From Candidatus Fimihabitans intestinipullorum (GTDB lineage: Bacteria > Bacillota_I > Bacilli_A > RF39 > UBA660), in contig DVML01000007.1 of the NCBI GenBank assembly GCA_018714965.1, forward strand, positions 5,323 through 69,322: 64,000 nt of DNA, read 5' to 3'. The position numbers and the translations under genes are program-made. Below, piece after piece: positions 2,257 through 28,628 of this stretch. Below the pieces are notes generated by a model. It worked only from the letters and a program-made list of their open reading frames with translations, ran no database searches and had not been told where the DNA came from. The number at the start of each line of letters is the position of its first letter. Positions within the stretch are counted from its first letter, which is position 1.

Positions 2257-2382
2257 TTGTGGGATCGATGTGTATTTAAAAATACACCAGTAGGATTATT
2301 ACAGGGAACATTTGTGATAACACCGAATGATCTTGAGCAGATTTGTGACCTTGATGTTGATAATAAGGTGGTGAGAAAGTGA
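2257..2382 (+). CDS. 41-aa small ORF (MWDRCVFKNTPVGLLQGTFVITPNDLEQICDLDVDNKVVRK), TTG start
   Basis: Perfect SD AAGGAGGG with 7-nt spacer to TTG; stop TGA overlaps GTG start of next gene (GTGA coupling); below the 60-aa cutoff of the ORF track. Confidence 0.4.
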   Translation: MWDRCVFKNTPVGLLQGTFVITPNDLEQICDLDVDNKVVRK

Positions 2383-2780
2383 GTAAATCGTTTTGGGGAA
2401 TATTTATTATTGTACTAGGTGTCATTTCAATATTTTTTGTAAACTTCTTTCAGAACATTACAAACGCAGATGAACAAAACTTTAATTTGCTGAAGGAAAC
2501 AACAGAAGCAGCGATGTACGATGCGTTTGATTTTGCATCATATCGTGCATATGGTGCGGTTCGAATCGATCGCGAGAAATTCGTAGAAAATTTTTTAAGA
2601 CGCTTTGCACAAAACGTAAATTTAGGGCATACATATAAAATTCAGATTTACGATGTGAATGAAATGCCGCCAAAAGTTAGTATCAAGGTATCAAGCTCCA
2701 ATACAGCTAATTTTACAGGAGAGACAATCGACTTTGATGTAACGAATAAATTAGATGCGATATTAGAAACGCCATATTAG
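2379..2780 (+). CDS. hypothetical membrane-anchored protein (single N-terminal TM)
   Basis: 133-aa ORF, GTG start preceded by AAGGTGGTGAG RBS; N-terminal hydrophobic helix. Confidence 0.5.
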   Translation: MSKSFWGIFIIVLGVISIFFVNFFQNITNADEQNFNLLKETTEAAMYDAFDFASYRAYGAVRIDREKFVENFLRRFAQNVNLGHTYKIQIYDVNEMPPKVSIKVSSSNTANFTGETIDFDVTNKLDAILETPY

Positions 2781-2795
2781 AATAGGAGAATAAAA

Positions 2796-3644
2796 ATGAA
2801 TAATATAATAGTAACATTTCAAAGATTTTTGAAAAATAAAAATACTGTAACAATTATCGGGGTTGTAGCAGTTATCGGAATTTTATATTGGGGATATAAC
2901 ATGCAGATTAATAATGCAGTTACACCAGTACGTAACATTCCAGTAGCAGTCGATACGATTCAACCAAGAACGAAAATTACAAAAGATATGATTGAATATG
3001 TAGATGTTGCACCTGTTGTGTTAAGTGACAACGTAATCCGTGTAGCATCACAAGTTATTGGAAAATATAGTAACTATAATACTGTAATTCCACAAGGTAG
3101 TATGTTCTATCAAGATACGTTAGTAACAGAGGAAGAATTACCAGATTCAGCATTTACACAAGTAGGTAAAAATGAAGTTGTATATAACTTCCCAGTTACG
3201 ATGGATTCTACATACGGAAACTCAATTTTTCCTGGCAATAAGATTGATATTTATATGAAAGCAACAACAGATGCCGGACAAATCATGGTAGGTAAATTAG
3301 TTGAAAACATTAAAGTATTAGCAGTTAAGGATAAAGATGGACGTCACGTATTTGAAAATACAGAAGAAGCACGTACACCATCAATGTTAATTTTTGGAGT
3401 AGATCCAGAAATCAATATCTTGTTACGTAAAGCAAGTTACATGGATGATTTTGATGTAGAATTATTCCCAGTACCACACGGACAAGAAGTTGATGAAAGT
3501 GGAGAAACACAAGTTAGTACACAATACTTAAAAGACTTCATTAACGCAAATACAGTAGTAATTGATCAATCAACAGATACAAATACAAACACGAATAACA
3601 ATTCAGGAAATAATACAAATACCCAAGAACAAGCAGGTGCATAA
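2796..3644 (+). CDS. Flp/Tad pilus assembly protein CpaB/RcpC-like (SAF domain)
   Basis: N-terminal TM then IPVAVDTIQPRTKITKDMIEYVDVAP...IPQGSM segment matching the CpaB SAF-domain pattern (V.VA..DI..GT.IT.DM....P....P.G); strong RBS. Confidence 0.55.
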   Translation: MNNIIVTFQRFLKNKNTVTIIGVVAVIGILYWGYNMQINNAVTPVRNIPVAVDTIQPRTKITKDMIEYVDVAPVVLSDNVIRVASQVIGKYSNYNTVIPQGSMFYQDTLVTEEELPDSAFTQVGKNEVVYNFPVTMDSTYGNSIFPGNKIDIYMKATTDAGQIMVGKLVENIKVLAVKDKDGRHVFENTEEARTPSMLIFGVDPEINILLRKASYMDDFDVELFPVPHGQEVDESGETQVSTQYLKDFINANTVVIDQSTDTNTNTNNNSGNNTNTQEQAGA

Positions 3645-3645
3645 T

Positions 3646-4935
3646 ATGTTTAATGATGCAATGTTTGCCCAGATTGACTTTGGACCACTAAAAGAATTAT
3701 TGGAAAATGATGATGTAACTGATATTTCTTATAGTAATGGAGGTCAATTATGGTTGAAGACACTATCGCGTGGTATTTTCCGCGTGGAAAACGATGTGGT
3801 CAATGATGCGTTTATGGAAAAACTAGCTTTCCAATGTTCCAACGTTATGGGTAAGACCTTTAACATGGCTCACCCTTTCTTGGATGCGGAGAGTGCAGAA
3901 TTGCGTTTGAATTTCGTACACGATTCTATCGCGAGAAACGGAATCGCCTGCGTAATGCGTAAAACACCAGCGAAAATTCGTTTGGAAAAAGAAAAAATAT
4001 TAGCAGAAAATTATATTACACTTGATGTTCATGACTTCTTAATGAAGGCAATTGAAGGACATTGCAACATAATTGTATGTGGAGAAACTGGTTCTGGTAA
4101 AACAGAGTTTGTCAAATATCTGGCTTCTCATATCAAAGAAAATGAGAAAGTTATTACAATTGAGGATACTTTGGAATTGCACTTGGATCGAATTTTTCCA
4201 CATCGGGATATCGTAGCAATGAAAACAAATAATATTGCTTCTTATTCAGATGTATTAGTAACTTGTATGAGACAGAATCCAAAGTGGATTTTGTTATCTG
4301 AGGTTCGTAGTGCGGAAGCAGTTATGGCTGTACGTAACTCGATTTCATCAGGTCACTATATTTTATCGACGATCCATGCGGATAAAGCAGAGTCTATTCC
4401 GAACCGTATGTACAGTTTGTTGGAAACAAATCAAGATATTGACCAGTTTTTGAAATCTATTTATCGTTATGTTCAATTAGGTGTTTATATTCGTGGATAT
4501 CAAGATAGAGTAACGAAGAGATTTCATCGTGAGATCGCTTCTGTTGTTGAATTTTACGTAACAGAGAATAACGAAGCAAAATATAATGTGATTTATAAAA
4601 AATTAAACGACGGTCATGTCGTAAGACAAAATCCTAGTAAATATTTACTTGAATATTTAGAGGGGCAAGGCGTAGAATTGCCAAAAGATATTATTCGAAC
4701 AGACTTAAATGAAAAAGAAGATAATACAGAGAAAGATGTGGAGAATACCACAACATCTACTGTAACTTCTACTCCGCAAGAACAAGCACAACAAGTATCT
4801 CAAGCAAGTCAATCTGCGGTGCAAAATCAAACGCCAGCTATGCCGGTAGGACAGACAGGTACTCAGCAGAATGCAAGTGCTACTTCTCAAGCGGGAGCAT
4901 TTAATCCGTTTGCAAATGTAAAACCAGTAGAATAA
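3646..4935 (+). CDS. TadA/CpaF-family secretion ATPase (VirB11/PilT superfamily)
   Basis: Walker A GETGSGKTE, Asp box ITIEDTLEL, His box LSTIHAD; start reassigned to ATG 3646 (RBS AGGTG, 7-nt spacer) directly after CpaB-like stop; Q/T/S-rich low-complexity C-terminal tail. Confidence 0.8.
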   Translation: MFNDAMFAQIDFGPLKELLENDDVTDISYSNGGQLWLKTLSRGIFRVENDVVNDAFMEKLAFQCSNVMGKTFNMAHPFLDAESAELRLNFVHDSIARNGIACVMRKTPAKIRLEKEKILAENYITLDVHDFLMKAIEGHCNIIVCGETGSGKTEFVKYLASHIKENEKVITIEDTLELHLDRIFPHRDIVAMKTNNIASYSDVLVTCMRQNPKWILLSEVRSAEAVMAVRNSISSGHYILSTIHADKAESIPNRMYSLLETNQDIDQFLKSIYRYVQLGVYIRGYQDRVTKRFHREIASVVEFYVTENNEAKYNVIYKKLNDGHVVRQNPSKYLLEYLEGQGVELPKDIIRTDLNEKEDNTEKDVENTTTSTVTSTPQEQAQQVSQASQSAVQNQTPAMPVGQTGTQQNASATSQAGAFNPFANVKPVE

Positions 4936-4948
4936 GGAGGGAATCATT

Positions 4949-5851
4949 ATGACGTTTATTATATTTGTAGTTGTTGCTGCAATCCTTATTTTCGTTTATT
5001 CATATCGAAAAAATTCTGGGCAGAACGTATATAAATATATTTCGAAACAAGCAGGTGTCATTTATGAAAAATACGCACCATACTCATTTCGGGAAGTACG
5101 ACAAAAAGTAAAAGATTTAGGACAAGAATATTCGACGAGACAATATGTCATTCAAATCGGTGTATTTGCTGCATCTGCAGCAGTTATTTCTTACCTATAT
5201 TTTTACAATCTGATTATTTCCATTATATATTCATGTTTGTCAGTCCTAGTGATTCCTTATCTGACTTATTTGAGATGTAAGAGATTGTATAGTGAGTTTG
5301 TCTTCGAGCAAATTCAAGTTTATACGACAAATACAATCATGGAATTTGCAACCACTCAATCGTTTGTTAAAGCGTTAGAGGGAGTGTATGAATCAGGAGT
5401 ATTAGAAGACCCTGTAAAGTCTGATGTAAAAATGATGATAGATATGGCTTACGAGAATGGTACAGTTGAACAGTCTATTGAATATATGAATTCTAGATAT
5501 GATTACTATATCGTAAAGAACATGCACCAACTATTCTTACAAATCACCAATGAAGGTGCGAAAGACTCTAGTGATGCACTAGAAAATATGTCTCTTGATA
5601 TCGATATGCTTGTTGAAAACGTATATAGCGATAGAATGGACCGTGCGCAGTTCCACAAAAAGTTTTTACAATTTGGAATTATTCTATATTTGATGGTTAT
5701 GTTAGTGCAGTTTTTGCTAGGAGTAGATACCTATATTCAAATGTTAGATAATATGTTAGTACAATTATTATTACATTTGATTATTATCGTCAATACAGCA
5801 TTCCTATTAAATGGTGAAAAATATTATAATGAGAATGTGGGGGCTGAGTAA
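4949..5851 (+). CDS. TadB-like polytopic membrane platform protein (T2SS-F-like)
   Basis: 300 aa, N- and C-terminal TM helices with cytoplasmic middle, position immediately after TadA-like ATPase; RBS AAGGAGGG. Confidence 0.45.
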   Translation: MTFIIFVVVAAILIFVYSYRKNSGQNVYKYISKQAGVIYEKYAPYSFREVRQKVKDLGQEYSTRQYVIQIGVFAASAAVISYLYFYNLIISIIYSCLSVLVIPYLTYLRCKRLYSEFVFEQIQVYTTNTIMEFATTQSFVKALEGVYESGVLEDPVKSDVKMMIDMAYENGTVEQSIEYMNSRYDYYIVKNMHQLFLQITNEGAKDSSDALENMSLDIDMLVENVYSDRMDRAQFHKKFLQFGIILYLMVMLVQFLLGVDTYIQMLDNMLVQLLLHLIIIVNTAFLLNGEKYYNENVGAE

Positions 5852-6633
5852 TGGAATTTATTTTAATCGCAGTAATTATTATATTTGTATTATCTTATAA
5901 CCATCATATTGACATGCATAAATTTATTGGAGATACGGAACCGTATTTTCGAATTTTAATGGAAGAAGACTATATATTTCTTCTAAGATTAAAGTATGGA
6001 GACAGTATCGATGTCGAAAAAATGTTTGGGATGCGCGTGCGCAATGGGCTCATCGCAACGGCAGCCATGCTTTTCATTTTGATGTCACAGGCAAATTTCT
6101 TAAATGTGTTATTTTCCGTTATCGTTGGATTTGTAGTATTTAAATTGCCTTATCAAAAATTAAAAGGGTATTATAAAGCTAATTTGCATAGAATTAACCA
6201 AATGTTACCATATTATTTGAAGAGTTTGGAGATCTTAGTTCAACACTATACAGTTCCAGTAGCGCTAAATCGTTCTGTTGAAACAGCGCCGGAAATTTTC
6301 CGATCTGGATTAAGAGAAATGATTGCTAAAATTGAAGCGGGAGATTCTAGTGTAGATCCATATATGGATTTCGCAAAAGAATATCCAGTACGTGATTCTA
6401 TGCGTATGATGCGTTTATTATATCGTTTAGGATTAGGATCACAGGAGAATAAGCAAGAGCAACTTATGATGTTTGCGAGAAGTGTATCACAACTTCAAAA
6501 CAAAGCACGTGAGCAAAAATATAAAGAACGTCTTGAGAAAATGGAAAATAAAACAATGATGATGTTGATGACAACAGGTGGAGGAATTTTATTACTCATG
6601 TTATTCTCAATGACAATGATGATGAATTTATAA
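5851..6633 (+). CDS. TadC-like polytopic membrane platform protein
   Basis: 260 aa, similar topology, TAATG stop/start overlap with preceding gene. Confidence 0.45.
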   Translation: MEFILIAVIIIFVLSYNHHIDMHKFIGDTEPYFRILMEEDYIFLLRLKYGDSIDVEKMFGMRVRNGLIATAAMLFILMSQANFLNVLFSVIVGFVVFKLPYQKLKGYYKANLHRINQMLPYYLKSLEILVQHYTVPVALNRSVETAPEIFRSGLREMIAKIEAGDSSVDPYMDFAKEYPVRDSMRMMRLLYRLGLGSQENKQEQLMMFARSVSQLQNKAREQKYKERLEKMENKTMMMLMTTGGGILLLMLFSMTMMMNL

Positions 6634-6704
6634 AATATAGTGTTTATAAAATAAAAAATATATGTTATACTAATAATGGTAGAGGTGTAAGGTGGTGAGA
6701 AAGA

Positions 6705-6881
6705 ATGAAAGAAGCAGCTGGAGAAGCAAACATGACAGTTATTACAATCATTTTGATTGGTATTATCGCAGCAATCGCTTACCCGATGATTAATAACTTA
6801 ATTACAAGTCAACAAGAAAAAGCTGAATGTCTTGATGCGGGTGGAACACCAGAAGAGTGTGGTGCGATCGCTAACCAATAG
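6705..6881 (+). CDS. 58-aa Flp-like prepilin candidate (MKEAAG/EANMTVITIILIGIIAAIAY...)
   Basis: Not in ORF track (<60 aa); RBS GGTGGTGAG; short charged leader ending in Gly followed by ~20 hydrophobic residues and a small Cys-containing tail, in the position of flp within a tad-like gene order. Confidence 0.4.
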   Translation: MKEAAGEANMTVITIILIGIIAAIAYPMINNLITSQQEKAECLDAGGTPEECGAIANQ

Positions 6882-6908
6882 TAAAAATAATAATGGAGGA
6901 ATAGAATT

Positions 6909-7331
6909 ATGAGAGAAGGTTTAGGAAATGTATTTATGTACAATATCATCATTCTTTTCCTCGTGTTAATGGTGGTATTTTTGGTTGGTACCATTAGTTA
7001 TAATAAGGCATTTAGAGTCAATAGTAGAATTATCAATGCGATCGAGAAATACGAAGGATACAATGGCCCTGCGTATGAAGAAATCGATCGCACTTTGGCT
7101 ATTATAGGATACCGCCGTGAGGGAGCTGTTGATTGCCCAACAAGAGACGGTGTTAGAGCCATGACGAATTTCACAGGTAAATATCAGTACTGTGTGTATG
7201 AATTTAAAATCAATGACAAATTTTACAATTACGGAGTTTTAACATATATTGATTTTGATTTGCCGGTTGCAGGAAAAGTAAAATTGCCGATTTATTCTAA
7301 AACCGATCAAATATATCAATTTCAAAGGTAA
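6909..7331 (+). CDS. TadE-like minor pilin/pseudopilin candidate, paralog A
   Basis: 140 aa; MREGLG/NVF... short leader then a single hydrophobic helix; shares GN...VG..SY.KA..V...IINAIE..EG...GYR...CP...YCV...YFD.P pattern with next gene. Confidence 0.4.
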   Translation: MREGLGNVFMYNIIILFLVLMVVFLVGTISYNKAFRVNSRIINAIEKYEGYNGPAYEEIDRTLAIIGYRREGAVDCPTRDGVRAMTNFTGKYQYCVYEFKINDKFYNYGVLTYIDFDLPVAGKVKLPIYSKTDQIYQFQR

Positions 7332-7346
7332 TAACGAGGTGATGAG

Positions 7347-7784
7347 ATGAATCAAGCGGTAGGTAATACGGCGATTGTCAATGTTGTTGTCGTATTTGTG
7401 ATTATCATTAGTGGGCTATTCGTCGGATCACTAAGCTATTCGAAAGCATATAAAGTAAAAAATATTATTATTAATGCAATAGAAGAACACGAGGGATTTG
7501 ATGAAGAAACAAAAGCTGAAATAGAAGAAACTTTGACTGAAATGGGATATCGTATTAATCGAAATGGTCAACAAAAATGTCCAAATCCAACAGTAGATGG
7601 TACGGTCGAAGCCTTAAATACAGCTAGTAATCATCATTATTGTGTTTGGAGAGTCAAAGAGACGAGGGGAACTTACTACATAGCAACAGCTTATATGTAT
7701 TTTGATATCCCACTTGTCGATGGATTTGAGGCACCTGTAACTGGTCATACCAAAACAATTTATAATGATGAAGCTCACGATTAA
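7347..7784 (+). CDS. TadE-like minor pilin/pseudopilin candidate, paralog B (tandem duplicate)
   Basis: 145 aa; MNQAVG/NTAIVN...; clear paralogy with 6909..7331. Confidence 0.4.
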   Translation: MNQAVGNTAIVNVVVVFVIIISGLFVGSLSYSKAYKVKNIIINAIEEHEGFDEETKAEIEETLTEMGYRINRNGQQKCPNPTVDGTVEALNTASNHHYCVWRVKETRGTYYIATAYMYFDIPLVDGFEAPVTGHTKTIYNDEAHD

Positions 7785-7804
7785 ATAGAGGAGATGGTGG
7801 ATCA

Positions 7805-8821
7805 ATGAATGTTATTGTAGCGAATCGATATCAATCATTACTACAAGGGCTTAATATTGATATCATTAAACAGATGGTTGGAGAGTTTGAAGTAGATGAT
7901 ATTATATCAACTTTTCAAAATTTCTTTTACCAAAGAATGATTTTAGATATTACAGCCATCAAAAACTATAAAGATGTTAAGACGTTACAAAAACTATCGA
8001 TATCTTTAGATATGGATAAAGTTATTTTGCTATTAGATGATTCACCGGAAAGTACATCACCGGATTATATCTCTAAACTGGTATCGATGGGAATTTATAA
8101 TTTTACAAAAAACGCAGAAGGTATAATGTATCTCTATAATAATCCAAATTCTTATCGAGATGTGGCACAATACCAGCAGTTGGATGTTGTAACTCCTATC
8201 GTTCAAGGGCAAGATGGAGCTTCAGTAAATCAAACAGGGTTGATGCAACCGGAACATGGGCGTATTATTGGCGTTAAAAACGTGACGGATGATTCTGGTG
8301 CGACAACTTTGATTTATATGATGAAAAAACAATTAGAAAAAAACTATTCTGTTGTTGCGATAGAAGTAGATAAGAGAGACTTTATGTTCTTTAGAGAAAA
8401 GGGATTGGTTAGTACGAATACTCAGGGAATAGGAAATGAAGTTTCAAAGTACAGTAATAAGGATGTCATATTGATTGATATTAATAGAAGTGCAAGTGCA
8501 GAAAGCCTTTGTACAGAAGTGTTTTACCTAATAGAGCCATCTATCATTAAATTGAATAAACTCATGATGACTGATGGAAAAGTATTGCAAAAATTAAAAG
8601 GGAAAAAAGTTATTTTAAATCAAAGTTTACTAAGTTCAAAAGATGTGTTAGATTTTGAGTATGAATCTAAAATTAAAATTTTTTATAACATGCCACCTTT
8701 AAACGAGAGAGAAGCAAATATTCAGGTTTTGAATTCTTTCTTAACGAAAGCGGGATTTACACGTCAAGCTGGAGGAGAACAAGAAAAAAAGAGTAAACTA
8801 CTAGGAATTTTTAATATATAA
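7805..8821 (+). CDS. hypothetical cytoplasmic protein; possibly a degenerate TadZ/CpaE-like assembly factor
   Basis: 338 aa soluble protein in tad-like block; no intact Walker A (only GVKNVTDDSGATTL); assignment by position only. Confidence 0.2.
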   Translation: MNVIVANRYQSLLQGLNIDIIKQMVGEFEVDDIISTFQNFFYQRMILDITAIKNYKDVKTLQKLSISLDMDKVILLLDDSPESTSPDYISKLVSMGIYNFTKNAEGIMYLYNNPNSYRDVAQYQQLDVVTPIVQGQDGASVNQTGLMQPEHGRIIGVKNVTDDSGATTLIYMMKKQLEKNYSVVAIEVDKRDFMFFREKGLVSTNTQGIGNEVSKYSNKDVILIDINRSASAESLCTEVFYLIEPSIIKLNKLMMTDGKVLQKLKGKKVILNQSLLSSKDVLDFEYESKIKIFYNMPPLNEREANIQVLNSFLTKAGFTRQAGGEQEKKSKLLGIFNI

Positions 8822-8823: not shown

Positions 8824-8852
8824 TTGACATTTCTATGAAATTCTTATATAAT
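8824..8852 (+). promoter_or_regulatory. consensus sigma-A promoter TTGACA-N17-TATAAT
   Basis: TTGACA at 8824-8829, TATAAT at 8847-8852, exactly 17-nt spacer; 23 nt upstream of RBS AAGGGAGG of the first VirB2-like gene. Confidence 0.7.
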
Positions 8853-8875
8853 TATTATAACAAGGGAGGTAACAT

Positions 8876-9202
8876 ATGTTTACATTAGTAAGTCCAGATG
8901 CAATTTGTGGAGGTATCACAATTCCAGGATCTATCGTAAGTATTATCAATATGGTAATCTTAGTTATTCAAATTGCAATTCCTATCATCTTAATCGTCAT
9001 GGGGATGTTAGATTTAGGAAAAGCTGTTATGGCTGGAAAAGAAGATGAAATTAAAAAGAACCAAACGTTATTCTTTAAACGTGTAATAGCAGCAGTTATG
9101 GTATTTTTAATTATTGCAGTTGTTAAATTAGTATTTGGAGTATTAGCAGATGCTAGTGGAGACAATACAGCAGTAGATTGTATCAGCAAAATTATTGGAT
9201 AA
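8876..9202 (+). CDS. VirB2/TrbC-like two-helix small membrane protein (T4SS pilin candidate), paralog 1
   Basis: 108 aa; helix1 (IPIILIVMGML) - charged loop (DLGKAVMAGKEDEIKKNQTLFFKR) - helix2 (VIAAVMVFLIIAVVKLV), C-terminal Cys; architecture of T4SS pilins. Confidence 0.4.
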   Translation: MFTLVSPDAICGGITIPGSIVSIINMVILVIQIAIPIILIVMGMLDLGKAVMAGKEDEIKKNQTLFFKRVIAAVMVFLIIAVVKLVFGVLADASGDNTAVDCISKIIG

Positions 9203-9225
9203 AACAAGAGTATTCTTGTTTTTTT
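9203..9225 (+). terminator. rho-independent terminator (probably attenuating)
   Basis: AACAAGA-gtat-TCTTGTT hairpin followed by TTTTTTT directly after paralog 1 stop. Confidence 0.6.
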
Positions 9226-9292
9226 GTGCCATAAAACTTGGAAAGGGGAAACGAATATGGTATACTTATATATGTAAAGATGGTGAAATAAT

Positions 9293-10063
9293 ATGAATTT
9301 AAAAAAATATATGAGAGATCTTATCGTACTAGCTTTTATATGCATGTGTATATCTCCTGTGAATGTACTCGCTGTTTGGGCAGGAGCACCACCGACTCCT
9401 ACAACTACGCCGACTCCTGGCACAAGTACGGAAAAGCAAGAGACATACGCAGAATGTCAACAAACACACCAGGGAAATTCTGGTTCTATGTGTCAAAAAG
9501 AAGCACAGGAAGCAGCGAAAGAAATAGAAAACAACAAAAAAATACAAGAAGGTAGTGGGTATGGAGAATGTAAAAAGGATTTGTCATATTTGCCAGAAAA
9601 TTCACAAGCTCTATATTGTGGAAAATATCAGAACACAACAGCTGAAGAATATGAAGAGATGACAGGAAAGAATGAAGCGAAAGCAGAAAATACATCAAAT
9701 AGCGGTCCGTCCTTAGAAGAAACATCATATAATATTCCATCTACGACTTGTGGTGGGTCTATTGAACTTCCTTTAGCACTTGCAACGATAACTTCAAATG
9801 CGGTTAATTTAGGAAAAATTGTTGTCCCAATTATTTTGATTATTATGGGGATGATTGACTTTTTTAAAGCAACAGCGGCAAGTGATGCAGATGCTACTTC
9901 TAAAGCCGGTAAAAAATTGACAAGACGTATTGTTGCGGCAATTGCAGCGATGTTGATCGTAACTTTGGTACAGTTTATCTTTAGTAATTTTGGAACAGCT
10001 ACAGGAAAGACGAGTGTAACGAGTTGTATAGATTGTTTTATTAATGGTAATTGTGGTGTATAA
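9293..10063 (+). CDS. secreted Cys-rich protein fused to a C-terminal VirB2-like two-helix module (paralog 2)
   Basis: Signal peptide (MNLKKYMRDLIVLAFICMCISPVNVLA), Thr/Pro linker, Cys-containing ~130-aa domain, then VPIILIIMGMIDFFKATAASDADATSKAGKKLTRRIVAAIAAMLIVTLV matching the paralog 1/3 motif. Confidence 0.4.
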   Translation: MNLKKYMRDLIVLAFICMCISPVNVLAVWAGAPPTPTTTPTPGTSTEKQETYAECQQTHQGNSGSMCQKEAQEAAKEIENNKKIQEGSGYGECKKDLSYLPENSQALYCGKYQNTTAEEYEEMTGKNEAKAENTSNSGPSLEETSYNIPSTTCGGSIELPLALATITSNAVNLGKIVVPIILIIMGMIDFFKATAASDADATSKAGKKLTRRIVAAIAAMLIVTLVQFIFSNFGTATGKTSVTSCIDCFINGNCGV

Positions 10064-10109
10064 ACTATGGAAAAGTGACAATAAACATATTTATTATTGT
10101 CCTTTTTTG

Positions 10110-10118
10110 TGTTATAAT
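10110..10118 (+). promoter_or_regulatory. possible extended -10 element (TGtTATAAT) upstream of paralog 3
   Basis: TGTTATAAT in intergenic region 10064-10149; no good -35. Confidence 0.3.
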
Positions 10119-10149
10119 GAAATTACTATTATGGGTAAGTGGGGATATT

Positions 10150-10521
10150 ATGAGAAAAAGCAACATTAAGAATAGAATATCAATGTCATTATTTACAGCA
10201 ATGATGTTTTTTGCTGGTAAGACGAACGTATTTGCAGTAGATAAAACATGTGAAGGAATTATGAGTCCTGAGGTGTTAACGTTAATCAAAGACATTTATA
10301 ATACTATTTCAGTTATGATGGTCGTGGCACTTGTCATATTTGGAATATTAGATTTTATTCAAGCAATAGCAGGAGACAAAGATGATGCGTTAAAAAAAGC
10401 TGCTGCCAAGTTTACAAAACGTGCAATTATTGTAATGGTGATAATTTTATTACCAGTGATTCTTGATATGTTGTTAGCTATTTTATGGCCGGATGTATCG
10501 TCATGTTTAGATGATATCTAA
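10150..10521 (+). CDS. VirB2/TrbC-like two-helix small membrane protein, paralog 3
   Basis: Start reassigned to ATG 10150 (RBS AAGTGGGGA, 6-nt spacer; ORF-track start 10051 overlaps previous gene); signal-like N-terminus, then VMMVVALVIFGILDFIQAIAGDKDDALKKAAAKFTKRAIIVMVIILLPVIL. Confidence 0.4.
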   Translation: MRKSNIKNRISMSLFTAMMFFAGKTNVFAVDKTCEGIMSPEVLTLIKDIYNTISVMMVVALVIFGILDFIQAIAGDKDDALKKAAAKFTKRAIIVMVIILLPVILDMLLAILWPDVSSCLDDI

Positions 10522-10538: not shown

Positions 10539-12506
10539 ATGATTACATGGATAATTAATATTTTTCTTAGTTTCTTTTTCTTACTAGATCAAATTGTTTA
10601 TGGCTTAATCGAATGTTTGTATCAAATGATACTACAAATTGCTAACATATCTGTTATTAGCCAAGCATCTATGCAAGAATTTGCAAATAGAATTTATGTT
10701 CTAGTGGGAGTTGTAATGTTATTCAAAGTTGCCTTCTCTTTGATTCAATTATTTGCAAATCCTGATAAGATGAGTGATTCAACTATGGGAGCAGGATCGT
10801 TAGTAAAACGTATTATTATATCACTCGTTTTACTCGTTATGGCTCCAACGATATTTCAATTAGCATTCCGTATTCAAGGGACTATTTTGAATGCCGGAAT
10901 TCTAGAAAAAGTAATTTTAGATTCCGATGTTGCACCGGATGGACAAAATCCAATTGATGTAGATTGTTCTTTGGAAGAGAATCAAGCATATCGTGTCTGT
11001 GGTGGAACGACAATTGCGTTTGCTATCTTTAGAGGGTTTGTTACACCGAACGAAAACTTGTATGAAGAAAATGAAAACGGAGAACAAGTATTATCAAGTG
11101 ATTATGCGGATTATGAAGAAAATGTAGAACAATATAATGAAGCGGTAAAAGAGCAAAATATTGGAAAATTATTGGATCCGATTTTGGCTGGAGAATCTGG
11201 GGATCGTCCATTTAATTATAGTTTTTTAATTTCAACGATTGCCGGGGCATTTGCAGCATGGACTTTATTTATGTTCTGTTTTGATGTTGCGATTCGTGCA
11301 GTAAAACTTGCCTTCTTGCAATTACTAGCTCCTGTTCCTATTTTAGCTAGAGTAGAACCAAAAAGTGACAAAATATTTGATAATTGGCTGAAAGAATGTA
11401 TTTCTACTTATTTAGAAGTATTTGTTAGATTGATTGCGCTATATTTTGTCGTATTTATTATTCAAGAGATTAGCGCAAACGGATTATTTAGTTTCTATGA
11501 GTATACTGCCGAAGGAGCAACAAAGCAAGCAGAAGATGTAGGACTTTTAGCAACGGCATTTATCGTATTAGGTTTGTTAATGTTTGCTCAAAAAGCTCCA
11601 AAATTAATTTCTGATATCTTCGGAGTTAAATCTGGTGATTTCACTATGAATCCATTTAAAAAATCTCCAATGATCGGTGGAGCTGTTGGACTAGCTGCTG
11701 GTACTGCAATTGGTGGAATGGCAGCTGCTCAATCGGCCAAAGCAAATGGTAAAAATCCGATTGGTGCAGCGCTGAAAGGAGCTTTAACAGGCGGTGCTAG
11801 GGGTGCAAGCGCAGGATCACGTGAAAAAAGTTTTATGAAGACACTTGGTGCAGCCGGAGATGCTTCTACTAGGTATGCACGAAAGATACCGAATAACACA
11901 GAGAATTCAACGCCTGGAGGAAAAATGTTGGCGGTTGCCCAACGAATGGGATTTATGAAGACGGCTGGACAAAGAGATAAGGAAAAGGTTGATTCATACA
12001 ACCGATATAATAAATCGGCAAAAGCATTTAAGGATCGTGCAAAATCTCAAGCAATGAAGAAAAAGGATACAGAGGTAACAATTTCAAAAGGTGCTTTAGC
12101 CGGAACGAGTTGGACGAGGTATGGATTAGAGGCTGAGTTAGATCTTGCGAAGAAAACTGGAAATACAACCGATATTGAAGCGGTAAGTATGGCTCTTGAT
12201 GACTGGGACAAACAAAAAGCGGATGATATCGCAAAAGACTGGGAGCATCAATATAAAACTAATGGATTACAAGTGGATGATGCTGAAGCATTGCAATACT
12301 TAACAGAAATGACAAACGAAGTTAATGATAATCAATCTTATTATGATGGCATTTTTGATGCTAGTAAGAGTGTGGATGACAATTCTAAAGCAGTTGCTAA
12401 AGCTAATGCTGAATTTCAAGATTCTGAAGAATTTAAACGTAATCGAGATAATGATCAATATGCTGAGAGCGCTGTCGGACCTATGTTCCAGACAAAAGGA
12501 AAATAG
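10539..12506 (+). CDS. VirB6/TrbL/PrgH-like polytopic T4SS channel protein
   Basis: 655 aa with multiple TM helices, central extracytoplasmic loop, Gly/Ala/Lys-rich cytoplasmic C-terminal region; sits immediately before VirB3-like and VirB4-like genes as in prgH-prgI-prgJ. Confidence 0.45.
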   Translation: MITWIINIFLSFFFLLDQIVYGLIECLYQMILQIANISVISQASMQEFANRIYVLVGVVMLFKVAFSLIQLFANPDKMSDSTMGAGSLVKRIIISLVLLVMAPTIFQLAFRIQGTILNAGILEKVILDSDVAPDGQNPIDVDCSLEENQAYRVCGGTTIAFAIFRGFVTPNENLYEENENGEQVLSSDYADYEENVEQYNEAVKEQNIGKLLDPILAGESGDRPFNYSFLISTIAGAFAAWTLFMFCFDVAIRAVKLAFLQLLAPVPILARVEPKSDKIFDNWLKECISTYLEVFVRLIALYFVVFIIQEISANGLFSFYEYTAEGATKQAEDVGLLATAFIVLGLLMFAQKAPKLISDIFGVKSGDFTMNPFKKSPMIGGAVGLAAGTAIGGMAAAQSAKANGKNPIGAALKGALTGGARGASAGSREKSFMKTLGAAGDASTRYARKIPNNTENSTPGGKMLAVAQRMGFMKTAGQRDKEKVDSYNRYNKSAKAFKDRAKSQAMKKKDTEVTISKGALAGTSWTRYGLEAELDLAKKTGNTTDIEAVSMALDDWDKQKADDIAKDWEHQYKTNGLQVDDAEALQYLTEMTNEVNDNQSYYDGIFDASKSVDDNSKAVAKANAEFQDSEEFKRNRDNDQYAESAVGPMFQTKGK

Positions 12507-12526: not shown

Positions 12527-12841
12527 ATGAATGGATTTTTAATACCAGCAAACTCAAAGAAATCATTGTATATTTTTGGACTATTTACAACCAACGAGCT
12601 GATTATGTTTGCTGCTGGAGTGGGATTGACGTTGATTTTCTTAATTGCATTCCCGCTCAATAATATATGGTTCTCGATCTTGGCATTGATGCCAGGCTTA
12701 ATCACTGGTCTATTGGTACTTCCAGTACCTCATTATCACAATGTTATGACTTTTTTAAAGGAAATGTATTTATTTTATACAGAACGTCAAAAATTTGTTT
12801 GGAAAGGATGGTGTTTCTTAGATGGCAGCGACAAAGAGTAA
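12527..12841 (+). CDS. VirB3/PrgI/TcpE-like small two-TM protein
   Basis: 104 aa, two hydrophobic helices, directly upstream of the VirB4-like ATPase; RBS AAAGGGGG. Confidence 0.45.
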   Translation: MNGFLIPANSKKSLYIFGLFTTNELIMFAAGVGLTLIFLIAFPLNNIWFSILALMPGLITGLLVLPVPHYHNVMTFLKEMYLFYTERQKFVWKGWCFLDGSDKE

Positions 12842-13367
12842 ATATACAGAGGAAAGTTTTGTTCCTGTTAAAAATATTACAAATGGAATGATTATTCTAG
12901 ATAATAACGAAAAAGTAACAGGTGTTAAAATAATGCCTCGTAATATTTTTATTCTGGAGTATGATATGCAATCAGCAATTATCAATAATCTAAAGAACGT
13001 TTATAATATGATCGATTATGAATTTTGGATCATTGCAGCAGACCGTCCGGTCGATATCAATGTATATTTATCACAATTACAACTTTTATATAATTCCATT
13101 CAAAGTCCAATCAAAAGAAAGTTGATTATCGAGGATATTAATAAAGCAAATAGTTTCATGAACAATAACATTGTAGATACAGAGTATTTCTTATTGTTTA
13201 GAGAACGTGATGATGATAAAATTCAAAAGAGAATTCGTACTTTGATTACACAGTTTGGAAATGCAGGATTATCTTCACATCAAACGACAAATGAGGATTT
13301 GAGAATTATTTTGGATAACTTCTTAAATGGTGGAGTTACAACGACGTTTGGGACGGTGATGTCATAA
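12822..13367 (+). CDS. 181-aa soluble protein translationally coupled to VirB4-like ATPase; either the separately encoded VirB4 N-terminal part or an accessory transfer protein
   Basis: Stop TAA overlaps downstream ATG (TAATG); combined length 181+594=775 aa matches a full-size VirB4. Confidence 0.4.
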   Translation: MAATKSKYTEESFVPVKNITNGMIILDNNEKVTGVKIMPRNIFILEYDMQSAIINNLKNVYNMIDYEFWIIAADRPVDINVYLSQLQLLYNSIQSPIKRKLIIEDINKANSFMNNNIVDTEYFLLFRERDDDKIQKRIRTLITQFGNAGLSSHQTTNEDLRIILDNFLNGGVTTTFGTVMS

Positions 13368-15151
13368 TGAATATTAAGAGTCAATTAGCGCCAAAAGGAT
13401 TAGAATTTAAACCAAGTGAATTTATCATCAGTGATAAGTATGCTACGATTATGACCGTGATTTCTTATCCGAAATTTATTAACCCGGGATTTTTAGCAAA
13501 CTTAACAAGTTTATCCGGAATTAAGGTAGTTATTAAACATATTCCTATGCCATTTAGTGTCATTAGTAAGATGCTAAATAAAGAGATTGCTGATTTGAAA
13601 CAGCGATATCAAGAGGAAAATGATAAGACGATTCAGGAGAGAATTCGTCAGGATTATGAATCATTAGAAGTTTTTATTCAGATGCTTGCATCAAGTCAGT
13701 CCAAGATTTATGACTTTCAATTACACATTATGATAACTGCCAATTCTGAAGAAGAGTTGATTGCGAAAAAGTTACAAGTTAGAAGTTATTTGGAAGCGAT
13801 GGAGTTACGTGCAGTACCACTTCGATTTGAACAAGAAAAAGTATTAAAATCTATTTTACCTATTTATCCAAAACAAGATATAGAAGATCGAATTGGGACT
13901 CCGATTCCATCTCCAACGATTGCTGCGATGTACCCATTTATTTTTGATAGTATTAAAGACCCAGGATTGTCAACATTACTTGGAGTTGATTTCTCAGGTG
14001 GAGTTATTCTGTTTAATCAGTTTTTATATCAAATCAAAAAAGAACATAATCGTAATAATGCAAATATGATTATTTTAGGTACTTCTGGTAGTGGTAAATC
14101 AACAGCAGCTAAAGTAATGTTACGTAGTCACTTTAGAAATAATAGTCAAGTCATTATGATAGACCCTGAAGGCGAATTAGAGGAAATGGCAAGATTATAT
14201 GGTGGAGATTTCATCGACCTTGGAAAAGGTGGAGAATATGGAATGATCAATCCACTAGAAATTGTTATGGATGCGGATGAAGATGAGATTAAACAGGGAT
14301 TGGGATATACTGTATTAACAAGAACACTCCAAACTTTAAAGGCATTCATTAAATATTACGATCCAAGTATTACAGAGGACGTTATTACTTTATTTAGTGA
14401 GGTTGTACAAGAAACATATAAGCGATTTGGAATTGATTTCAATACAGATTTTTCTAGATATACATCAAAAGATTATCCTATCTTTAAAGATGTATATGCC
14501 ACGATTTATGGAAAATTGAAGTCAATGCCTGAAAAAACACATGAACGTGACATTCTTGAACAATTGGAATTAAAGATTAGACCAATCGTTAAGGAATTAC
14601 GTTATTATTTCGATGGGCATACGACAATTAAGCCAAAGAGTGAGTTTATCGTATTTAATATTAAGGAATTGATGAATGCGGATGTGAATATTCGTAATGC
14701 GTTATTCTTTAATATCTTGAAATACGCATGGGGAATGACGTTAAATAAAAGCGTTAATACGATATTATCCGTGGATGAGGCTCATGTATTGTTAAGCGGA
14801 AATAATACATTAGGTGCTGATTTCTTGGCGCAAATTCAAAGACGTGCGCGTAAGTATAACACGGGAACAATTATTATTACACAACAACCGAGTGATTTTA
14901 GTGATAATGCAGTTATCACGCAGGGAAAAGCGATTTTTGATAACGCTTCTTACTACTTAGTTATGGGACTAAAAAAACAAGCAGTAGAAGATTTGGCTCG
15001 TTTAATCGATTTGAACGACAACGAGAAAGAGAGTATTAAAGGTTATAATCAGGGAGAAGCATTATTTGTATGTGGTAGTCGTCGTATGCAAATCAATGTT
15101 ATCGTATCAGAACAAGAATTAGATTCATTTGGTTCAGGAGGAGGATTATAA
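13367..15151 (+). CDS. VirB4/PrgJ/TcpF-family conjugative ATPase
   Basis: Walker A GTSGSGKST, downstream VDEAH Walker B-like motif, N-terminal motif resembling the N-terminal signature of Gram-positive VirB4 homologs; 594 aa. Confidence 0.8.
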   Translation: MNIKSQLAPKGLEFKPSEFIISDKYATIMTVISYPKFINPGFLANLTSLSGIKVVIKHIPMPFSVISKMLNKEIADLKQRYQEENDKTIQERIRQDYESLEVFIQMLASSQSKIYDFQLHIMITANSEEELIAKKLQVRSYLEAMELRAVPLRFEQEKVLKSILPIYPKQDIEDRIGTPIPSPTIAAMYPFIFDSIKDPGLSTLLGVDFSGGVILFNQFLYQIKKEHNRNNANMIILGTSGSGKSTAAKVMLRSHFRNNSQVIMIDPEGELEEMARLYGGDFIDLGKGGEYGMINPLEIVMDADEDEIKQGLGYTVLTRTLQTLKAFIKYYDPSITEDVITLFSEVVQETYKRFGIDFNTDFSRYTSKDYPIFKDVYATIYGKLKSMPEKTHERDILEQLELKIRPIVKELRYYFDGHTTIKPKSEFIVFNIKELMNADVNIRNALFFNILKYAWGMTLNKSVNTILSVDEAHVLLSGNNTLGADFLAQIQRRARKYNTGTIIITQQPSDFSDNAVITQGKAIFDNASYYLVMGLKKQAVEDLARLIDLNDNEKESIKGYNQGEALFVCGSRRMQINVIVSEQELDSFGSGGGL

Positions 15152-15177: not shown

Positions 15178-17004
15178 ATGCATTTTTTAGCCGGATTGGG
15201 AAAGAAATTATTAGTTGACAAGGCAAAAAAGAAAATTGCTGGTAAAGCGAGAGGCGATTTGCCAACACTTAAGGCCCCTTTACTTATGATTGGTGGATTA
15301 CTTGCAGGATTAGGATTGTTTCCAATAATCCTAATCCTTTTAATGGTGGCTGTGGTATGTTATGTCATATTTGCCCCAATTGAAGGTGCTGTCAATTTCG
15401 TAAAAGGAATAGCAAATGCAGTTGGAGATTTTTTCCAAAGCGTTGGGAACTTCTTTGTTTATGGAAGTTTTGCTAATGACAAGACAACTTACTATAATGA
15501 ATTAAAGAAACATTATGATCATTGGAAAGGCGAGGGAGTTATCTTAGATGTAGCATGGATTGCTTCGGCTACTAATTATGCTAGATTAGCGGATTTAAAT
15601 GACAGTGGTGAATGTACGCCTGAAGTTGATGCTGATGGAAATGTAACTCAATGTGGAGAAGAAACAGACTATGGACAGATGACTGGAGAAGTCAAAGAAT
15701 TAGTCGAAGGAATGGTAACTTCTGCTGATGGCAGGTCGCTTCGAAAATCCGATGATGAATATAAGGCTTGGATGTTAGATGAAAATTCTGGAAAATCATG
15801 GATCGAAAGGCATATGGAACAAGTAGATGCAGATATTCCATCAAATCCAGAGAAGAAAAAAGATTTCTTAGAAGATGCTGTAGAGCAAATTTTTCAGATG
15901 AAAGAAGCTTATAATGAAATTGCTCAAATGATGAAAACATCATCAACATGTGGAAGTTACGAGGAAATAAAATTATGTGATACGAAAAGCCGTGGGTTTA
16001 CTGGAGGTTATGCAAATCAACCTTGGGTAAGTGGAAGTTATCAACATACTTTTTGGAACTGTGATAAAGGAACATGTTCTGCAAATACGACACTTCCATT
16101 AGGAAAAAACGAATATGGAACACTAGAAGTTGATGAGCTTGGTTTTACATATATGGAAATAGGTGGAACTAAGTTCTATACGGCTGCAGTTGGATCTTAT
16201 TATTTCGATGATCCATCTGAAGCGATAGGTACGAGATATCGTATTACGACAGATGCTGGAAATGTATATCATATTATTTTAGCCGATGTTCTTGCGGATC
16301 AAGATGCCAAAAAGGGAAATAATGATTCTAGTCCATATTGTTTAACGCAAGCGAATACATTTGGTGATATGTATTTTGATCGTGTATATATGCAAACGCA
16401 TAGTCCTGAAACTTATAATTTATTTATGAGTGATGGAACGAACAATCATGACTTCGATGAAAATCATAAATTTAGTGGTACAATTGTTAAAATTGAGAGA
16501 ATGACAGGTTCTTCAGATTGTACAGGAGACTTTGGATTTACTGGTGAAGTAGATGATCCAATTATTGAGGATTCTGCAGTTTCCAAAGATTATTCTTTAT
16601 TTAGTGGAAATGGAAATCCATTTGAAGTACCTCAGTGTACATGGTTTGCGTGGGCAAGATTTTATCAAGTCTATGGATATGACAGTGGTGCACGTGGTAA
16701 TGGTGAAGCAAATGCGAGAGAGATTGTAGCAGCAAATCCTGGCAAATTCCAAATGAGTGATACTCCGGCTCCAGGAGCAGTGTTTAGTATTCCACCATAT
16801 GGAGGATCAGGAATCACAGAATATGGACACGTAGGATTTATAGAAGCATTTGATGGAGAAAGTATCTGGATTTCAGAGGGTAATGTTAAATTATCTGGAT
16901 ATGGTTCTGGAAATATGTGGTTTCATAAAGAAAATTGGGCGTCTTATAAAGCTCGTTATCCGGGTATTGAGTTTGCGGTTCCAGTAAATGCAAAGAAAAA
17001 ATAG
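15178..17004 (+). CDS. membrane-anchored cell-wall hydrolase with C-terminal CHAP domain (PrgK/VirB1-like role)
   Basis: N-terminal TM; C-terminal CTWFAW...GHVGFIE Cys/His arrangement typical of CHAP amidase/peptidase domains; ~300-aa central Cys-containing domain of unknown type. Confidence 0.65.
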   Translation: MHFLAGLGKKLLVDKAKKKIAGKARGDLPTLKAPLLMIGGLLAGLGLFPIILILLMVAVVCYVIFAPIEGAVNFVKGIANAVGDFFQSVGNFFVYGSFANDKTTYYNELKKHYDHWKGEGVILDVAWIASATNYARLADLNDSGECTPEVDADGNVTQCGEETDYGQMTGEVKELVEGMVTSADGRSLRKSDDEYKAWMLDENSGKSWIERHMEQVDADIPSNPEKKKDFLEDAVEQIFQMKEAYNEIAQMMKTSSTCGSYEEIKLCDTKSRGFTGGYANQPWVSGSYQHTFWNCDKGTCSANTTLPLGKNEYGTLEVDELGFTYMEIGGTKFYTAAVGSYYFDDPSEAIGTRYRITTDAGNVYHIILADVLADQDAKKGNNDSSPYCLTQANTFGDMYFDRVYMQTHSPETYNLFMSDGTNNHDFDENHKFSGTIVKIERMTGSSDCTGDFGFTGEVDDPIIEDSAVSKDYSLFSGNGNPFEVPQCTWFAWARFYQVYGYDSGARGNGEANAREIVAANPGKFQMSDTPAPGAVFSIPPYGGSGITEYGHVGFIEAFDGESIWISEGNVKLSGYGSGNMWFHKENWASYKARYPGIEFAVPVNAKKK

Positions 17005-17016
17005 AGGAGGTTTAGC

Positions 17017-17454
17017 ATGGTGAAAAGTTCTAATAAACATACAGGTATGTTAGCCGTAGGATGTATTGTGATATGGGGAGTATTCTTATATTTTACTTTT
17101 CATCAGCCAGTCTCTAAGGATCCTGTTTTTGAAGTCTATTCAAATATCAATAAAGTTTATCAAAATTTTGAAATTGATTATTTATCCTATGTAAAAACCG
17201 CAACAGATTATGAGGGAAATGATTTAAAAGATCACACTCATATTACGTATACGCCTATAGACAATACTAAGTTAGGTACTTATAATGTAGAATATACTTT
17301 GACGGATGATCATAATCGTTCTGTTACGAGGACAGTAAGAATTAAAATTGAAGCGTATCCAGGAGCAAGTAATGTATCAACTGATCCAGGAGCGAGTTAT
17401 ATATCAGAGGAAGAATTAAGAGATAAGATAAATGGAACACAAGGAGGCATGTAG
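17017..17454 (+). CDS. small membrane-anchored protein with Ig-like (DUF5011-like) domain
   Basis: N-terminal TM; GTYNVEYTLTDDHNRSVTRTVRIKI beta-sandwich-like signature. Confidence 0.4.
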   Translation: MVKSSNKHTGMLAVGCIVIWGVFLYFTFHQPVSKDPVFEVYSNINKVYQNFEIDYLSYVKTATDYEGNDLKDHTHITYTPIDNTKLGTYNVEYTLTDDHNRSVTRTVRIKIEAYPGASNVSTDPGASYISEEELRDKINGTQGGM

Positions 17455-20273: not shown

Positions 20274-20295
20274 AGTGGAAACACTCTATTTTTTA
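20271..20295 (+). terminator. rho-independent terminator
   Basis: AGAGTG-gaaa-CACTCT hairpin then ATTTTTTAT. Confidence 0.55.
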
Positions 20296-20369
20296 TATGG
20301 AATAGAAAGTATTTTCATTTTCCTTTAATTTGTATTATAATGGAAAGTAGGATAAGAAAGGAGGAACAT

Positions 20370-22041: not shown

Positions 22042-22070
22042 GAGGAAAAATAAATATCTTGTTGTAAGAT

Positions 22071-28538: not shown

Positions 28539-28547
28539 TATTTTTTT

Positions 28548-28623
<76 letters not shown>

Positions 28624-28628
28624 TCGAT

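Follow-up and report, generated by a model that had tools for sequence, protein, structure and literature searches.

Two papers from 2025 describe the type IV secretion systems (T4SSs) of Gram-positive bacteria as lacking pilins of the VirB2 type, with Patescibacteria as the sole exception (PMC12102498, PMC12857230). In Patescibacteria, 2–11 divergent pilins of the PF18895/VirB2-like kind form arrays next to PrgI, TrsD and VirB4, and a relaxase is mostly missing (PMC12102498), and the 2025 papers left the origin of these pilins open, as they are "absent in MPF-FATA" (MPF, mating-pair formation). Here we report on three tandem paralogous genes, par1, par2 and par3, in a 64-kb window (the whole stretch of DNA analysed) of Candidatus Fimihabitans intestinipullorum, a metagenome-assembled genome (MAG) from chicken gut that NCBI places in Mycoplasmatota incertae sedis. 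We lean towards the view that the three paralogs are pilin-like subunits of a chromosomal MPF-FATA-type T4SS in a monoderm host.

Among described systems, the T4SS of Patescibacteria comes closest (Wang et al. 2023; Quinonero-Coronel et al. 2025, PMC12102498). As in Patescibacteria, the genes occur as tandem divergent copies (1–8 here, 2–11 there) whose PF18895 match is near full-length, and they lie on the chromosome of a monoderm near PrgI, VirB6 and a VirB4 that is split into TrsD and a P-loop part, usually without a relaxase. A type IV-filament system lies alongside in both cases, and the TrsD and VirB4 neighbour pair seen here also appears in the supplement of the Patescibacteria paper (PMC12102498). 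Unlike Patescibacteria, the host here is a gut bacterium of low GC (guanine plus cytosine) content, labelled Bacilli or Mycoplasmatota, with spore-germination and peptidoglycan genes. Set against the Patescibacterial arrays, most members here score below the Pfam threshold, ectodomain fusions (Cys-rich or enzymatic) occur often, the locus includes VirD4 and a wall hydrolase, and the T4SS is physically joined to a Tad-like cluster. A terminal Cys pair and a CxxC tail are near-invariant in the present family.

The three proteins resemble VirB2, TrbC and TraA in their small size, their two hydrophobic helices with a basic loop, the position of their genes just 5′ of VirB3/VirB4 and the Sec signal of par2 and par3. 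Both termini are likewise predicted to lie outside and may be linked, through a disulfide in the present proteins; in TrbC/VirB2 the link is a peptide bond. They differ from these pilins in that no similarity of sequence or profile is detectable, the module spans ~100 amino acids (aa) against ~65–75 aa in the mature pilins, par1 is leaderless, and a Cys pair, large fused extensions and a monoderm envelope are found.

Two further groups of small membrane proteins invite comparison. TraB of plasmid pIP501, named "CagC family T4SS protein" by NCBI, is required for efficient transfer, the rate of which falls when TraB is deleted; it interacts with mating-pair-formation proteins and forms oligomers no larger than tetramers, and its authors found no relation to VirB2. 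Like the array proteins, TraB/TrsB belongs to a Gram-positive T4SS, combines a signal peptide with a two-helix hairpin whose loop is cytoplasmic, and is encoded where the mating-pair-formation genes begin; unlike the array, TraB is a single-copy, plasmid-borne gene with a relaxase and has neither flanking Cys pair nor extensions. A first-pass annotation of the window had assumed that Gram-positive conjugation systems normally lack such pilins. Reviews do say so, but the premise is too strong, because pIP501 TraB is a small hairpin of similar topology on Gram-positive plasmids. The small transfer proteins of Mycoplasma integrative and conjugative elements (ICEs; NF045849, NF045848) come from a related lineage and are also small membrane proteins encoded before VirB6-like and VirB4 genes, whereas those ICEs, unlike the present locus, are mobile and reside in wall-less hosts. 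In M. agalactiae, CDS15 is required for ICE transfer. The general idea of pilins in such systems is not new, since PF18895 and an NCBIfam "pilin-like" Mycoplasma ICE model exist; our literature search found no description of the present family or locus.

Three paralogs share a two-helix module bounded by cysteines

The three genes are arranged as follows.

8876..9202, + strand: par1, 108 aa, leaderless, module alone, 2 Cys (C11, C102); candidate major subunit
9293..10063, + strand: par2, 256 aa, with signal peptide (aa 1–27), extension (aa 28–148) and module (aa 149–256)
10150..10521, + strand: par3, 123 aa from ATG 10150, with signal-peptide-like N-terminus, module and 2 Cys

That these are three tandem paralogous genes, as first proposed, held on re-examination: all open reading frames (ORFs) lie on the + strand at these coordinates, and BLASTP and a hidden Markov model (HMM) of the module agree. 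Pairwise BLASTP gave 34% identity for par1 and par2 (E = 5e-15), 32% for par3 and par2 (E = 1e-5) and 27% for par3 and par1 (E = 1e-7). Run on the 64-kb window, the module HMM retrieved exactly three ORFs, par1–par3 (E = 1e-42, 7e-37 and 2e-29), and none besides.

Alignment of the three paralogs defined a common module of ~95–105 aa, from an upstream Cys (C-G/E-G) through a C-terminal Cys. The first-pass annotation had described a shared C-terminal module of hydrophobic hairpin, charged loop and Cys; this description was borne out, but its length of ~55 aa was not. The module opens with a Cys, followed by a long hydrophobic helix that terminates in G-M/I-x-D; next come a charged loop with K/R-R at its end, another hydrophobic helix and another Cys. 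Both Cys are invariant among par1, par2 and par3. AlphaFold2 modelled par1 with a predicted local distance difference test (pLDDT) score of 83 and helices at residues 18–53 and 56–94; at 36 and 39 residues, the predicted helices would far exceed the length needed to cross a bilayer.

At its N-terminus, par1 has no signal peptide, and its ORF starts 10 residues upstream of the N-terminal Cys. The signal peptide of par2 is clear (...PVNVLA/VW). Read from ATG 10150, the N-terminus of par3 (MRKSNIK..., MRKSNIKNRISMSLFTAMMFFAGKTNVFA/VD) is signal-peptide-like. This ATG is most likely the true start of par3, rather than TTG 10051, because the TTG overlaps the end of par2 and the ATG has both a GGGGA ribosome-binding site and the signal-peptide-like N-terminus; par3 is then 123 aa long. 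Leader-like sequences are present in par2 and par3 and lacking in par1. Hydropathy analysis gave two hydrophobic segments in each module and a higher K/R content in the loop than in the tails. The par3 module has an LLP motif in helix 2, and its stop codon lies 17 nucleotides (nt) upstream of a VirB6-like gene.

The extension of par2 contains a Thr/Pro stretch and four Cys, and its module ends in CxxCxxxxxC. In the AlphaFold2 model of par2, the module reached pLDDT 73–79 and the N-terminal extension 27–55. Among the N-terminal parts first ascribed to par2, the signal peptide, Thr/Pro stretch and Cys are present, but the extension is not confidently folded, and the proposed tip or adhesin domain was not upheld.

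The array is embedded in a conserved secretion locus

The array lies between a Tad-like cluster and a set of T4SS genes.

2379..8821, + strand: Tad-like pilus cluster upstream of par1, syntenic with the array in most loci
6705-6881, + strand: Flp-like ORF of 58 aa with a C-terminal Cys pair, missed by a 60-aa ORF filter
7805-8821, + strand: conserved 338-aa protein, no family match
10539..12506, + strand: VirB6/TrbL-like polytopic membrane protein; weak matches (TrbL_4, E = 2.6e-4; pLS20_p028, E = 1.1e-4)
12527..12841, + strand: PrgI/VirB3-like protein (PF12666, E = 1e-3)
12822-13367, + strand: VirB4 N part, TraC-like/TrsD-like, 181 aa
13367-15151, + strand: VirB4 P-loop part, 594 aa
15178..17004, + strand: CHAP-domain cell-wall hydrolase, a VirB1 analogue (PF05257, E = 6e-15)
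between CHAP hydrolase and VirD4: small Ig-like protein of 145 aa
17457..19880, + strand: VirD4-type coupling protein (PF02534, E = 1.6e-55)

The type IV secretion context assigned to the array in the first pass was confirmed: genes for the VirB6-like protein, PrgI/VirB3, VirB4, CHAP hydrolase and VirD4 lie directly downstream in the window, and the association recurs across other genomes. A scan of one genome per species with a profile built from a five-sequence alignment yielded 38 loci on genome contigs, which we mapped with ORFs and HMMs. At 18 of the 38 loci, 1–8 tandem module genes stand immediately 5′ of a VirB6-like gene, which is invariably the next gene after the array at the mapped array loci. 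As far as the fetched stretches reach in those 18 loci, the VirB6-like gene is succeeded by PrgI and the two VirB4 parts, and the array comes after Tad-like genes in most. Six additional contigs, reached through two other family members, have the same order in 6/6, with a gene of 69–79 aa at the position of the Flp-like ORF. The shared order is Tad-like genes, array, VirB6-like gene, PrgI, split VirB4, hydrolase and VirD4.

Some loci depart from this layout. L025, L029 and L030 have the array with VirB6/VirB4, and no upstream ORF there was matched by the Tad-cluster proteins of the window; L009 and L026 carry module genes downstream of VirD4. Eight copies of 112–487 aa occur at L012, seven at L022 and six at L023. 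Five of the array genes at L012 (L012:7983-15525) encode proteins of 235–487 aa with large N-terminal parts and a C-terminal module of the par3 type.

All 38 loci derive from gut MAGs. Five contigs bear Bacteroidales labels; the labels of the others are Tenericutes, Mycoplasmatota, Bacilli, Bacillales, Lactobacillales, Firmicutes or Erysipelotrichaceae. We do not accept the Bacteroidaceae/Muribaculaceae labels of those five (L017, L021, L022, L024 and L032): their contigs have 26–28% GC, like every other locus, and a Bacilli-type locus, and are therefore probably mis-binned.

VirB4 (12822..15151), encoded by two overlapping genes, matches NF045975 (E = 1.7e-14) and PF19044 (E = 8e-16), the N part matching the Mycoplasma ICE VirB4 model at E = 1.7e-14. 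A frameshift or pseudogene as the cause of the two-part VirB4 was ruled out: two genes are found in every locus where both parts are visible, which points to a genuine two-gene arrangement. PF26592 PrgI_like was matched in homologous loci.

The Tad-like cluster, joined head-to-tail to the T4SS genes, encodes DUF5411, RcpC-like and TadA/CpaF-like ATPase proteins, two membrane proteins, the 58-aa Flp-like ORF, two ~140-aa proteins without family match and the 338-aa protein. With its own Flp-like ORF, the cluster has a candidate pilin separate from the array. Searches of PDB sequences with the 338-aa and VirB6-like proteins returned nothing.

Module genes are also found remote from T4SS genes. 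The neighbours scanned at such solitary loci are housekeeping genes (among them tRNA synthetases, PolA, GyrB, UvrA and SpoIIIAH), and several of these loci share MAGs with a T4SS locus. A short solitary module gene directly follows a SpoIIIAH-like gene at L032:7410-8243, L035:4713-5535 and L036:594-929, with gyrB next in L032; at L028 and L038 the module gene and the SpoIIIAH-like gene are divergent. At L028 the solitary copy is two genes away from a confirmed C39-peptidase ABC transporter, and the syntenic L038 is arranged in the same way.

The module defines a large and mostly unannotated family

Among 1.84 billion representative proteins, a nine-module profile matched 10,073 (representatives at 50% identity) at E ≤ 1e-3 and 5,914 at E ≤ 1e-10, almost all of them unannotated. 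The family consensus, GMLDLGKAVMAxKEDEIKKGQxTFIKR, agrees with the motif MGM-D-x-x-KA..AG..D...KK...F.KR that the first-pass annotation had singled out for searching.

We counted architectures and Cys residues among the 256 top matches with a full module. The N-terminal Cys was present in 255/256, the C-terminal Cys in 256/256 and CxxC at the C-terminal end in 242/256, counts that are somewhat biased because the profile itself holds the Cys. In this rank-biased sample, the bare leaderless module of the par1 type is the largest architecture class (101/256). N-terminal extensions occur in 60 proteins, a signal peptide with a C-terminal extension in 42, extensions on both sides in 25, and a signal peptide with the module only in 23. 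The extensions contain 5.3% Cys and reach about 450 aa. Mature proteins have an even number of Cys in 227/256 cases (p = 3e-39, subject to the same bias), consistent with extracytoplasmic, disulfide-bonded ends and extensions.

Enzymes are found among the fused domains: a VanY D-Ala-D-Ala carboxypeptidase in family member P0143 and a GDSL lipase in P0134, with a sub-threshold NlpC/P60 match in P0120 (18.5 bits against a cutoff of 23). These fusions suggest that the hairpin is able to carry enzymes.

Expression signals and divergence within the array

Expression signals and a variable block were located around and within the three genes.

8824..8852, + strand: sigma-70-type promoter TTGACA-17-TATAAT (12/12 matches), upstream of par1
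8862..8869, + strand: strong Shine-Dalgarno sequence AAGGGAGG, 6 nt upstream of the par1 ATG, read from the sequence
9201..9229, + strand: terminator-like hairpin and U-run 3′ of par1 (-7.3 kcal/mol, z -2.9)
9399..9684, + strand: sharply bounded hypervariable block of par2, coding for the mature N-terminal extension, from DNA comparison with L001/L002
10070..10108, + strand: terminator-like hairpin and U-run 3′ of par2 (-10.6 kcal/mol, z -3.2)
10110..10118, + strand: candidate extended -10 element TGTTATAAT 5′ of par3, a tentative call read from the sequence

When 18 homologous array genes were checked for the same signals, promoters within one mismatch of consensus preceded 8 (six short leaderless genes and two other first-array genes), and a hairpin with a T-run lay 3′ of 10. 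The par1 protein is 99.1% identical in L001 and L002, while par2 is only 66% identical. Other locus proteins are 90–100% identical to those of L001 and L002, save in L002 the CHAP hydrolase (68%), the Flp-like ORF (89%) and the Ig-like protein, which was not recovered. A second variable spot emerges when L002:13439-16324 is set against window 15178-17454; it comprises the CHAP hydrolase and the 145-aa Ig-like protein.

Within the par2 block, DNA identity to L001/L002 falls to 33–48%, against 73–100% in the flanks. P0006 shares 107/108 module residues with par2 and 28/109 in the extension, and an alternative allele of the block encodes about 10 Cys versus 4. No silent copy of the block was found in the 64-kb window. 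On sequence comparison, the block looks like cassette replacement of a surface-exposed region. We consider par1 probably the major subunit, given its own consensus promoter, strong ribosome-binding site, terminator-like hairpin and 99% conservation. The specialisation into major and minor subunits suggested in the first pass is plausible in this light, with par1 set apart by its promoter, hairpin and conservation and par2 by its hypervariable block.

Evidence for and against a pilin identity

PF18895 (T4SS_pilin) is the top Pfam family for the module, matching 54 of 104 members at E ≤ 0.01 (best E = 3.9e-8). Its matches cover both helices and the loop, from model position 5 to 71 of 71 in par2, 7 to 68 in par3, and 1–70 and 4–71 in others. 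In five pairs of forward and reversed sequences, PF18895 ranked first for 5/5 forward (17.9–33.7 bits) and was not matched at all by the reversed ones (0/5). With 33.7 and 27.9 bits, two of the five forward sequences exceeded its cut-off, which a 235-aa protein of L012 exactly equalled (26.6 bits). All three window proteins have a hydrophobic hairpin and basic loop, as in TrbC/VirB2, with signal-peptide-like N-termini in par2 and par3 and a leaderless par1. From these sequence matches, we regard the PF18895 link as probable at the level of the family and unproven for the individual window proteins.

A series of results weighs against a pilin identity. In the window itself, PF18895 gives 18.1 bits for par2 (E = 0.0028), 14.8 for par3 and no match for par1, against a gathering cut-off of 26.6. 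Reversed hairpins produce noise of up to about 20 bits, spurious 7tm_1 matches occur in 34 of 104 members, and the family consensus scores 20.7 bits against PF18895, no better than individual members. TrbC/VirB2 (PF04956) is absent among the 25 Pfam families listed for the 104 members, and hhalign of the family against 120 VirB2 homologues gave a probability of 0.1%, equal to PrgI and reversed controls. Of the VirB2/TrbC architecture first attributed to the genes, the hairpin and the position in a T4SS locus stand; a sequence relation to PF04956 is not detectable. PDB sequence searches with par2 and the module profile retrieved no solved pilin, only spurious rhodopsin and anoctamin, and fold searches were non-specific or empty, a helical hairpin not being discriminable by fold. 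Furthermore, par1 is leaderless, unlike classical VirB2, and 17 of the 38 loci carry one or two module genes remote from any T4SS gene, usually with large extensions. Packing into a VirB2-type filament may be difficult for extensions that reach about 450 aa and include enzyme domains.

Searches with other candidate families were negative or at noise level. A pIP501-type TraB (the pRE25 copy) scored about 4 bits against the family HMMs and 0.2% in hhalign. NF045849 (Mbov_0395 pilin-like) matched 23 of 104 members at E ≤ 0.05 (best 1.3e-4), which is noise level, and the Mycoplasma ICE models NF045849 and NF045848 were matched weakly by 23–25 of 104; unrelated NCBIfam models match more members (MamI 80 and pyrophosphatase 42 of 104). 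For par1–par3, NCBIfam gave no usable match, NF045849 included. The single-helix architecture of Flp/Tad pilins was not found, each module having two hydrophobic helices. PHROGs gave no match, 2.9 million viral contigs held no relative, and neither megablast of the locus nor tblastn of a family member matched PLSDB plasmids.

Host and chromosomal setting

Further features of the window bear on its host.

23721-25037 (- strand), 25134-26705, 26789-27700 and 29619-30776: four ORFs of 303–523 aa without Pfam match, flanking the tRNA cluster
28462-31200 and 36661-36737: 14 tRNA genes, 13 of them within 2.7 kb
42420-43523: PBP5-type D-Ala-D-Ala carboxypeptidase
46538-50409: GerA/GerB/GerC spore-germination operon

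The par2 protein is 100% identical to a hypothetical protein of Candidatus Fimihabitans intestinipullorum. The window is chromosomal, with genes for an aminoacyl-tRNA synthetase, ClpC, a MutY-like protein and other housekeeping functions; in its tRNA-rich stretch, local GC climbs to 0.41. Despite its filing under Mycoplasmatota, the host appears to be a walled relative of the mycoplasmas that keeps spore-germination genes, as judged from the PBP5-type carboxypeptidase, GerA/B/C and the housekeeping genes. No relaxase or integrase was found among the scanned window ORFs; together with the conserved chromosomal position, this does not bear out the role in conjugation implied by the first-pass annotation. 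The position is kept across genomes whose modules share only 30–40% identity, which argues for vertical inheritance of the locus rather than a recently mobile element.

A ~535-aa protein is encoded upstream of the cluster in the window, L001, L002 and L039–L041. Downstream of VirD4, rhodanese and RmuC genes follow in the window (19977-23726), L009 and L026, and a rhodanese gene lies downstream of VirD4 at the border of the fetched stretch in L040; a UvrD-type helicase gene stands beside rhodanese/RmuC in the window only. These three genes could be linked to DNA handling by the system or be mere conserved neighbours.

Discussion

If the three paralogs are pilin-like subunits, we propose the following scheme. 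The hairpin would insert with its loop in the cytoplasm and both termini outside, a topology drawn from the signal peptides, charge distribution and Cys parity. Export of par2 and par3 would proceed through Sec and signal peptidase, whereas leaderless par1 would insert directly. The terminal Cys pair could then form a disulfide stapling both ends, a functional analogue of the head-to-tail cyclisation of TrbC/VirB2. By analogy with Gram-negative systems, on which this step is modelled (summarised in PMC12857230), VirB4 would pull subunits from the membrane, and the VirB6-like protein would be the platform on which they assemble into a short conduit or a pilus; this structure may cross the wall through a gap made by the CHAP hydrolase. 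In such a structure, par1 would be the bulk subunit and par2 and par3 minor subunits whose extra N-terminal parts project outward, and the hypervariable block of par2 might act as a determinant of specificity or adhesion.

The hairpins might instead stay in the membrane, recruiting or stabilising the channel as pIP501 TraB does, with longer versions anchoring ectodomains and no filament being formed. We rate this account as rather unlikely, though it has real attractions: TraB is itself a two-helix hairpin with a signal peptide, a role in transfer and no VirB2 relation, the module likewise lacks detectable VirB2 similarity, the large extensions with their enzyme fusions suit an anchor better than a tightly packed filament, and the solitary copies amid housekeeping genes fit a general anchor. 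Against it, the family does not resemble TraB in sequence (about 4 bits; hhalign 0.2%), and a recruitment factor would need neither 2–8 divergent tandem copies nor a consensus promoter and terminator on the shortest copy. The sole consistent Pfam link is to a pilin family, PF18895, and helices predicted at 36 and 39 residues are well beyond what a bilayer requires. Less probable still, polymorphic T4SS cargo might use the module for delivery or targeting: the hairpin would be the export handle, and the machine would present or release the variable parts as effectors against neighbouring cells. The VanY and GDSL lipase fusions, together with the weak, sub-threshold NlpC/P60 match, would fit such effectors, as would highly variable extensions at the N-terminus, the C-terminus or both, the cassette-like replaceable block of par2, and orphan copies dispersed in genomes that have a T4SS locus; since no relaxase was found, the T4SS substrate may also not be DNA. 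Yet the bare module is the largest class (101/256 in the rank-biased sample) and includes par1, the window extensions have no recognisable enzyme, and signal peptides imply that extensions cross by Sec and not via VirD4. Adjacent immunity-like genes were not noticed, although no search was aimed at such genes.

Two other assignments we regard as very improbable. Flp and type IV pilins have a single N-terminal hydrophobic helix and a class III leader. In most loci the array comes straight after the Tad-like genes and the gene for the conserved 338-aa protein, so par1–par3 might be taken to serve the neighbouring Tad-like (type IVc) machine as its pilins, and not the T4SS; their two-helix hairpin differs from single-helix Flp pilins, however, and that machine has its own Flp-like ORF (6705-6881), with a 69–79 aa gene at the same place in relatives. 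Moreover, the array stays with VirB6/VirB4 where Tad matches are lacking (L025, L029, L030), and copies follow VirD4 in L009 and L026. The least credible assignment is to holin-, bacteriocin- or immunity-type small membrane proteins with no tie to secretion: a hairpin with two transmembrane segments and the proximity to a C39-peptidase ABC transporter at L028 and L038 speak for it, but PHROGs, viral contigs and PLSDB gave no match, no phage genes lie nearby, and the synteny with T4SS genes is strongly conserved.

On our preferred reading, that of pilin-like T4SS subunits, arrays resembling PF18895 pilins form part of a FATA-type T4SS in gut Bacilli that have a wall and low GC. This would give a second independent system for asking whether monoderm T4SSs make pili, would supply a candidate evolutionary link for the Patescibacterial arrays, and would indicate that a secretion apparatus can display domains that are variable, disulfide-rich or enzymatic, in a way not recognised so far. 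A working annotation would become available for more than 10,000 "hypothetical" clusters. The finding should interest T4SS specialists, though the sequence links are weak and any filament is hypothetical. A more far-reaching proposal, which we hold to be doubtful, is that a second monoderm lineage beyond Patescibacteria builds a VirB2-type pilus from a subunit array on a chromosomal, relaxase-less FATA-type T4SS joined to a Tad-like machine, with disulfide-stapled subunits and swappable ectodomains, including enzymes. Were this true, pilin arrays would be an ancestral or exchangeable part of monoderm T4SSs, the system of gut Bacilli could be kin to the source of the Patescibacterial apparatus, and its role may be cell-to-cell interaction rather than plasmid conjugation.

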